Under the pieces are notes generated by a model, which was given only the letters and a program-made list of their open reading frames with translations, ran no database searches and was not told where the DNA came from. A stretch of DNA of 64,000 nucleotides from the NCBI RefSeq assembly GCF_003334405.1, contig NZ_QOWM01000004.1, one strand, 5' to 3'. Source of the stretch: Escherichia coli (GTDB lineage Bacteria; Pseudomonadota; Gammaproteobacteria; Enterobacterales; Enterobacteriaceae). Below are positions 35,463 to 35,692 of the stretch, piece by piece; the stretch's first letter is position 1; the number at the start of each line of letters is the position of its first letter. The position numbers were made by a program, and so were the translations under genes.

Positions 35463-35490
35463 ATCCTTTTCAGCCGCGTATTGGCTTGTT

Positions 35491-35506
35491 TGCAAAGCGG
35501 ATGCCA
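35491..35506 (-). promoter_or_regulatory. sigma54-type promoter of the rut operon (minus-strand TGGCAT-N5-TTGCA)
   Basis: Plus-strand tgcaaagcggatgcca read directly; GG and GC dinucleotides at the -24/-12 spacing; lies about 30 nt upstream of the rutA ATG. Confidence 0.6.
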
Positions 35507-35570
35507 GTTTTTAAAAAGTTAATGTTATTAATCTGTTAACATTACGTTATCTAAAATATCTGGTAAAAAG

Positions 35571-35586
35571 TGGACTAAACGGTCAA
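35571..35586 (-). promoter_or_regulatory. Candidate RutR operator (minus-strand TTGACCGTTTAGTCCA, 11 of 14 matches to TTGACCAnnTGGTCAA)
   Basis: Palindrome-like site read from the rutR-rutA intergenic region; a nearby TGCACA-N5-CATGCA (35593-35609) could be an NtrC half-site pair. Confidence 0.4.
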
Positions 35587-35692
35587 AACAGTTGCACATA
35601 AAACATGCATCTGTGCGCGATGAGAGTGCAGAAGGTCGAGGCCGGGCGGGGGTTTTGCTATCCTGTTGCCAATCTACAAGAGGGGAGAGCGC

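Follow-up and report, generated by a model that had tools for sequence, protein, structure and literature searches.

The divergent rutR-rutA control region of Escherichia coli: sigma54 promoter, RutR operator and a conserved leader block

The interval 35463-35692 of the stretch of Escherichia coli DNA analysed here (64 kb, referred to as the window throughout) is the divergent control region between the rutABCDEFG operon and the repressor gene rutR. The model to which the analysis leads, namely a rutA promoter driven by sigma54 and NtrC and repressed by RutR, with rutR transcribed divergently and rutA translated from the ATG at 35405, is very probably correct. The promoter/operator architecture at its centre is real and has already been published; indeed, it can be regarded as both right and already known, since ChIP-seq, SELEX and RutR-binding papers describe the same sites. 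The published experiments cover the binding of sigma54, the binding of RutR and its release by uracil, the role of the operator in autoregulation and the occupancy by NtrC, and the present analysis is based on sequence identity, positional conservation and the analysis of the start codon.

In the mechanism proposed, sigma54 RNA polymerase would be poised as a closed complex at 35507-35491, giving rise to a transcript from near 35480. Phosphorylated NtrC, bound to boxes centred at -121 and -142 with respect to the predicted start, would contact the polymerase by DNA looping, probably assisted by an IHF-like bend at about -52, and only then would the promoter fire. A RutR dimer bound to one operator, centred at -98.5, would keep rutA off in the absence of uracil and, from the same operator, would act as a roadblock for rutR's own transcript, because the operator lies downstream of the rutR start. 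Uracil would release RutR, so that pyrimidine breakdown would be switched on under nitrogen scarcity in the presence of uracil, and rutA would be translated from ATG 35405 after a 75-nt leader. RutR may interfere with NtrC either by hindering oligomer assembly or by disturbing the loop; we infer this mode of interference, as well as the exact transcript start, the boxes contacted by NtrC and the involvement of IHF.

The identity of the locus is supported by sequence comparison, in which positions 35380-35720 differ from E. coli K-12 MG1655 by a single base, at 35414, the rutR-rutA intergenic part being 100% identical (K-12 version 3 coordinates are obtained by adding 1,038,549 to those of the window). 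Megablast recovers the stretch from 5,422 of the 5,426 complete E. coli genomes, the annotation being rutA/rutR in every case. The interval is flanked by the open reading frames of rutA on the minus strand (34314-35405 from its best-supported start, stop codon included; 363 aa, MKIGVF...) and of rutR, divergent from it on the plus strand (35693-36331, 212 aa), with putA past rutR. The K-12 rut control region is reportedly also the subject of the studies known as Zimmer 2000, Loh 2006 and Shimada 2007.

Conservation was evaluated on 80 Enterobacterales loci, one genome per species, anchored on the rutA MKIGVF codon, 79 of which were usable. Once anchored on the predicted rutA start, the control region aligns end to end without gaps. 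In Enterobacteriaceae the order of the elements is distal NtrC-like box, proximal box at -121, RutR box at -98.5, a TTAACAnnTTAATAACA block, a T/A tract and the promoter, and the same order is found in most loci of Erwiniaceae and Yersiniaceae. Within E. coli, substitutions gather in the spacer and leave unchanged the -24/-12 elements, the two NtrC-like boxes and the RutR box.

The sigma54 promoter of rutA

The sigma54 promoter, CTGGCATCCGCTTTGCA, occupies positions 35507-35491 of the minus strand, with the GG doublet (-25/-24) at 35505-35504 and the GC doublet (-13/-12) at 35493-35492. The two doublets are exactly one helical turn apart, and the sequence departs from the TGGCAC-N5-TTGCA consensus by one mismatch. 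The TGGCAT-N5-TTGCA element that the first-pass annotation had claimed upstream of rutA is therefore present, at 35506-35491 of the minus strand and 28 nt before the ATG at 35462. Taken by itself, such a motif is not rare: TGGCAY-N5-TTGCW is matched once in the 64-kb window versus 0.32 matches expected, and at least one match was obtained in 27 of 100 shuffled sequences.

Matrix scoring, which the first-pass annotation had proposed as a check, gave a mixed answer in the case of sigma54. With a matrix built from the 41 other intergenic ChIP-seq sites listed in Table 1 of Bonocora et al. (2015), the rutA site is the top 17-mer of the window, with 14.3 bits, by a small margin. However, the score is a modest one, exceeding only 10 of the 41 real sites (i.e. 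falling in the lower third), and random sequence of 64 kb would be expected to contain about 2.3 sites scoring at least as high, so that the motif alone is not decisive. Two other 17-mers of the window come close, with 14.2 bits each, namely ATGGCATCATTGATGCA at 2400-2416 (plus strand) and GTGGCCTGCAACTTGCT at 20423-20439 (minus strand); both may be chance matches or intragenic sigma54 sites.

The assignment is most strongly supported from outside the window, by identity to published sites and by the conservation of the motif in orthologous loci. In the ChIP-seq study of Bonocora et al. (2015), the sigma54 site OS10 lies upstream of rutA on the minus strand, and its motif is CTGGCATCCGCTTTGCA; Zhao et al. 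(2010) gave the identical sequence for ycdM as a sigma54 prediction, and Shimada et al. (2021) found an RpoN genomic-SELEX peak at the same site. A -24/-12 motif is present upstream of rutA in all of the 79 Enterobacterales loci and, within E. coli, the 17-mer is constant save for one spacer base in one strain. Bonocora et al. (2015) predicted the start of the rutA transcript at a position 19 bp past the motif centre and 18 nt ahead of the ATG annotated at the time, and note that the promoter is labelled 'predicted' in EcoCyc; by coordinate conversion, the predicted start corresponds to position 35480 of the window. In the literature covered by the search, which comprised the later rut papers, no rutA transcription start mapped by experiment was encountered.

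The same ChIP-seq survey of Bonocora et al. (2015) contains an 'intergenic antisense' sigma54 site, OA02 (CCGGCATGAACAATGCG), for which the nearest downstream gene is rutR, 5.8 kb off. Conversion from its K-12 version 2 coordinate, 1067678, places it at about position 29906 of the window, and it should sit near the far end of the rut operon.

RutR operator, NtrC-like boxes and the spacer

The near-palindrome at 35571-35586 that had been described as a RutR-like operator is, verbatim, the published RutR box, TGGACTAAACGGTCAA (TTGACCGTTTAGTCCA on the rutA strand), centred at -98.5 and downstream of the rutR start. When TTGACCGTTTAGTCCA is compared with the 16-bp palindrome TTGACCAnnTGGTCAA, 11 of 14 positions match, with A4 and T13 both present. 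Here matrix scoring, also proposed at first pass, bears the assignment out: with a matrix derived from 15 other published sites, the box scores 16.8 bits, the best value in the window and above 9 of the 15 real sites, versus 0.05 such matches expected per random 64 kb, and the match is, thus, significant in its own right.

The position of the box is fixed across genera, at -98.5 in Enterobacteriaceae or at -107.5 in most Erwiniaceae and Yersiniaceae, where a second box is often found at -88.5. The operator lies 6 bp from the proximal NtrC-like box, between the enhancer and the promoter. Experimental work on it is ample. Shimada et al. (2008) list TGGACTAAACGGTCAA in their Table 1 as a RutR site with an 11/14 match, on the basis of ChIP-chip and EMSA. 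For RutR on the rutA-rutR fragment, Nguyen Ple et al. (2010) obtained a KD of approximately 8.6 nM, with formation of a single complex from which uracil frees RutR with an I0.5 of approximately 9 nM. Nguyen Le Minh et al. (2015) located the box past the rutR start and upstream of the sigma54 promoter of rutA, and showed that four substitutions in it (an operator-constitutive change) abolish the uracil-sensitive autoregulation of rutR. According to Kremer et al. (2024), removal of RutR alone does not lead to derepression of rutA in the exponential phase. This is as expected, because the promoter depends on an activator (NtrC), and it shows that, under those conditions, RutR is not limiting for the control of rutA.

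A second RutR-like box of the window, TTGACCATTTTGTCCA, is found at 7880-7895, at the gfcE/gfcD junction, with two mismatches and 16.1 bits, the second best score. It is absent from the 20-site ChIP-chip list of Shimada et al. (2008); as a candidate site, it would fit the known habit of RutR of binding within genes.

Upstream of the operator, the TGCACA-N5-CATGCA element claimed at 35593-35609 was recovered at that position, reading TGCACATAAAACATGCA on the plus strand and TGCATGTTTTATGTGCA on the rutA strand. It constitutes the proximal NtrC-like box, centred at -121 from the predicted rutA start and with one mismatch to TGCAC-N7-GTGCA. The first-pass annotation had one box only, and missed a distal one, TGCACTCTCATCGCGCA on the rutA strand, at 35614-35630, centred at -142 and 21 bp from the proximal box. 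With respect to TGCACY-N5-RGTGCA, the box at -121 has three mismatches and that at -142 has two. Singly, such half-palindromes are at the chance level (three found in the window versus 3.7 expected); two of the three, both of them conserved, are separated by only 4 bp and lie close to the RutR box on its upstream side. In Enterobacteriaceae the proximal box takes the form TGCCTGnTTTnYGTGCA, with a high per-column information, and the distal one that of TGCACYnnnAYYGCGCA, found at -141 to -143 in 25 of 28 Enterobacteriaceae-type sequences and at about -131 in three Mangrovibacter loci; in Erwiniaceae and Yersiniaceae, most loci have an equivalent distal box at around -150 to -152.

NtrC has been found at this locus by Brown et al. 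(2014), with a strong ChIP-seq peak at ycdMLKJIHG (enrichment 94), which by conversion corresponds to 35449-35529 of the window and is centred on the promoter, not on the boxes. The NtrC-dependent induction of rut in microarrays is cited by Kremer et al. (2024). As judged from their sequence and position, the pair of boxes at -121 and -142 would be the sites contacted by NtrC.

It could be argued that the sigma54 and NtrC-like matches are fortuitous and that rutA is driven by a sigma70 promoter, given that the match to the sigma54 consensus, the sigma54 matrix score and the single NtrC-like matches are each within what chance would produce in 64 kb. Such a reading is scarcely credible, as it has to contend with the fact that sigma54 ChIP-seq, genomic SELEX and NtrC ChIP-seq all fall at the rutA promoter, that all 79 loci have the motif at a fixed spacing from the RutR and NtrC boxes, and that no sigma70-like promoter was found in 35380-35760. 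A sigma70-driven rutA is, in fact, effectively refuted already by the ChIP data. The sigma54-dependent, nitrogen-regulated promoter proposed at first pass agrees instead with the ChIP-seq site OS10, the genomic-SELEX peak and the NtrC ChIP-seq peak.

The spacer between operator and promoter contains an IHF-like core, TATTAATCTGTTA, at 35526-35538 of the plus strand, with one mismatch to WATCAANNNNTTR and centred at -52. The core falls within a block, TTAACAnnTTAATAACA, that is conserved in Enterobacteriaceae at about -58 to -40. As a single match to the consensus the core is at the chance level in the window, and it is informative only through its positional conservation: when the window and its 79 orthologs are considered together, WATCAANNNNTTR is present at -52/-55 with at most one mismatch in 57 of the 80 loci (10.7 in shuffled spacers) and without mismatches in nine (0.8 in shuffled spacers). 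The core would probably be a bend site that aids looping. No paper reporting the binding of IHF at rutA was found in the literature search. The assignment is tentative because the sigma70 promoter of rutR must occupy the same spacer, and the IHF-like core may instead be part of that promoter; its -35 and -10 elements could not be placed, since the scan of 35380-35760 for sigma70-like promoters of either rutR or rutA gave no match at the threshold of the tool.

The start codon and the leader of rutA

Three start codons come into consideration for rutA, namely the TTG at 35495 (393 aa), the ATG at 35462 (382 aa) and the ATG at 35405 (363 aa), the last being the most likely. The TTG is excluded because the predicted transcript, starting at 35480, would not include it and because it forms part of the -12 element; the first-pass annotation, which had rejected the TTG-extended ORF, was right in doing so, the triplet being located inside the TTGCA of the -12 element. 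Its claim of a shorter start holds only as far as the TTG is concerned, but the ATG at 35462 that it favoured appears to be wrong too, probably lying 57 bases too far upstream. Similarly, the AAGGA that it took for a Shine-Dalgarno sequence is indeed present, at 35468-35464, but it precedes ATG 35462 by 1 nt, which is too short a spacing.

ATG 35405 is favoured because of a universal Shine-Dalgarno sequence, the interruption of the N-terminal extension in other species, the lack of conservation of the 35462 triplet and of its frame, and the start of the TIGR03612 family. In detail, a GAGG/AGG Shine-Dalgarno sequence is found 6-8 nt before the ATG of MKIGVF in all 79 orthologous loci; in the window, it corresponds to 35412-35417 of the minus strand and reads GAGTGG, versus GAGAGG in K-12 and in every other E. 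coli checked. Position 1 of TIGR03612, the NCBIfam RutA equivalog, aligns with the Met encoded at 35405, residue 31 of the 393-aa ORF. PGAP places the start at 35405 (363 aa) in every RefSeq strain sampled, and the construct of PDB 6SGG is the 363-aa RutA.

The T at 35414 that distinguishes the ribosome-binding site here (GAGAGG to GAGTGG on the rutA strand) is private to the window, the surrounding 61-mer being found exactly in none of 5,421 complete E. coli genomes; it could lower the translation of rutA, or be a sequencing error.

Translation from ATG 35462, with AAGGA as the Shine-Dalgarno sequence and a 382-aa product, is the start used in the curated K-12 record; the frame is open in K-12-like strains, a 382-aa construct has been crystallised (PDB 5WAN) and the predicted transcript start at 35480 would leave an 18-nt leader. 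We nevertheless consider it unlikely. Read as a Shine-Dalgarno sequence and start codon, the segment 35468-35460 fails on the spacing of 1 nt as well as on conservation: among the 62 leaders that keep the motif described below, the equivalent triplet is ATG in 18, GTG in 15 and TTG in four (i.e. a start codon in 37 leaders), and a non-start triplet in 25, and its frame with respect to rutA is scattered 29:14:19. Moreover, in many species, and also in one Escherichia locus (L004), in-frame stops break the 19-codon extension, and the start of TIGR03612 at residue 31, the universal Shine-Dalgarno sequence and ATG at 35405 and the 363-aa PGAP annotation all speak for the downstream codon. With regard to annotation, rutA is, thus, over-extended in the curated record of K-12, at 382 aa, as well as in the ORF track, at 393 aa.

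With the start at ATG 35405, the predicted 5' leader of rutA comprises the 75 nt from 35480 to 35406 of the minus strand, its first position being set by the rule of 19 bp past the sigma54 motif centre. It contains a conserved non-coding motif (35442-35479, minus strand) made up, in the 5' to 3' direction, of a GC-rich arm ACGCGGC (35479-35473), the AAGGA (35468-35464, with AGGA at 35467-35464), a core UGCAGGAUGCA (35461-35451) and a second GC-rich arm, GCCCCGU (35448-35442); the block also spans the ATG at 35460-35462. AAGGA and ATG 35462 look 'well formed' because both belong to this block. The core, in the form GCAGGANGC, is present in 62 of 79 Enterobacterales leaders, whatever the reading frame, and is the CsrA repeat of CsrB type, CAGGA(U/A/C)G, which has been shown to be displayed in hairpin loops (Liu 1997; Dubey 2005; review PMC7652899). 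A second AGGA is found 6-12 nt upstream of the core, and Pantoea leaders contain two full copies of the core, 12 nt apart. Enterobacter hormaechei, Enterobacter cloacae, Buttiauxella and Yersinia are lineages with a short leader and no block.

The case for an RNA structure in this block is weak. RNAalifold retains only a 2-bp GC/GC clamp around AGGAN; outer arms drawn by hand pair in 82% of the alignment cells, with compensatory changes that are few and phylogenetically clustered; the folding of the E. coli rutA leader is no better than that of shuffled sequence (z = +0.89); and Rfam, searched with the leader up to an E-value of 10, gave no match of relevance.

What the block is for may be viewed in two ways. 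It might encode a regulatory leader peptide, MQ[D/E]A[A/V][P/Q]R..., that controls rutA and is fused to it in frame in E. coli by chance: several genera would yield similar peptides, some of the variation falls at third codon positions, and some of the upstream ORFs end in an ATGA that overlaps the rutA start. However, a start codon is missing in 25 of the 62 leaders, which have CCG, AAG, CGG, TAG and other triplets in its place, the fifth codon varies at its first two bases and keeps a fixed G at its third, whereas a coding pattern would be the reverse, and the AGGA is just 0-3 nt from the putative start; a peptide is, accordingly, a very improbable explanation. Both an N-terminal extension and a leader peptide were rejected, in view of the starts missing from 25 of 62 leaders, the unconserved frame and substitutions that are not codon-like.

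Alternatively, the leader could be an element of post-transcriptional control, in which a GC-rich stem including the 5' end of the mRNA would enclose two AGGA motifs, one of them in a perfect hairpin of CsrB type, for recognition by CsrA or by another GGA-binding factor. This proposal is put forward tentatively, and we regard it as possible but on balance doubtful. No paper linking CsrA to rutA was found in the literature search. In the CLIP-seq data of Potts et al. (2017) there is no CsrA peak in rutA, the expression of which is not expected under the conditions of that study. If the proposal were true, the leader element would couple the expression of the Rut proteins to carbon status or to the stability of the mRNA, in addition to the control exerted by NtrC and RutR, and the '382-aa start' of K-12 would be a misread piece of it.

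Two further observations concern the same subject. The CLIP-seq data of Potts et al. (2017) contain a CsrA peak within the rutR coding sequence (K-12 1074528-1074704, equivalent to 35979-36155 of the window), which might connect the Csr system with the regulator of Rut. In E. coli O157:H7 RV06 (locus L083) the GGA of the leader core, aligned to 35457-35455, is changed to GAA (GCAGAATGC), and this strain would provide a natural test case should the motif prove functional.

Significance and comparison with known systems

Confirming the rut promoter adds little in itself, because its architecture is that of textbook E. coli regulation. Besides the support for the 363-aa start, the small additions made here are the distal NtrC-like box, an IHF-like core conserved in position and the leader motif, three features that do not occur in the rut papers searched. 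A functional IHF-like site or CsrA-like leader motif would refine the picture of how signals from nitrogen, pyrimidines and, possibly, carbon come together at the rut operon.

As far as the leader is concerned, a likeness to CsrA-regulated leaders and to CsrB is found in the rutA core, where G-CAGGA(N)G-C matches the repeat exactly and the short clamp could present AGGAN. Unlike in CsrA-binding leaders, the candidate sites are located approximately 40-50 nt upstream of the Shine-Dalgarno sequence, and not over it, and the loop is one nucleotide shorter than that of the SELEX optimum for CsrA.

The closest relative of the control region is the rutAp and rutR-rutABCDEFG region of K-12 itself, with which it shares the sequence, the sigma54 17-mer, the RutR box, the divergent gene pair and the occupancy by NtrC; the intergenic region is without differences, and the sole change is the A-to-T substitution at 35414, in the Shine-Dalgarno sequence of rutA. 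Classical promoters dependent on NtrC and sigma54, such as glnAp2 and glnHp2, have two NtrC sites approximately 100-140 bp upstream, sometimes with IHF bound in between. Like these, rutA exhibits a -24/-12 promoter and a pair of NtrC-like dyads that are 21 bp apart and share a helical face, as well as an IHF-like core, at -52, within an AT-rich spacer. Unlike them, it has an operator for a TetR-family protein inserted between the enhancer and the promoter, and its spacer also has to hold the divergent promoter of rutR.
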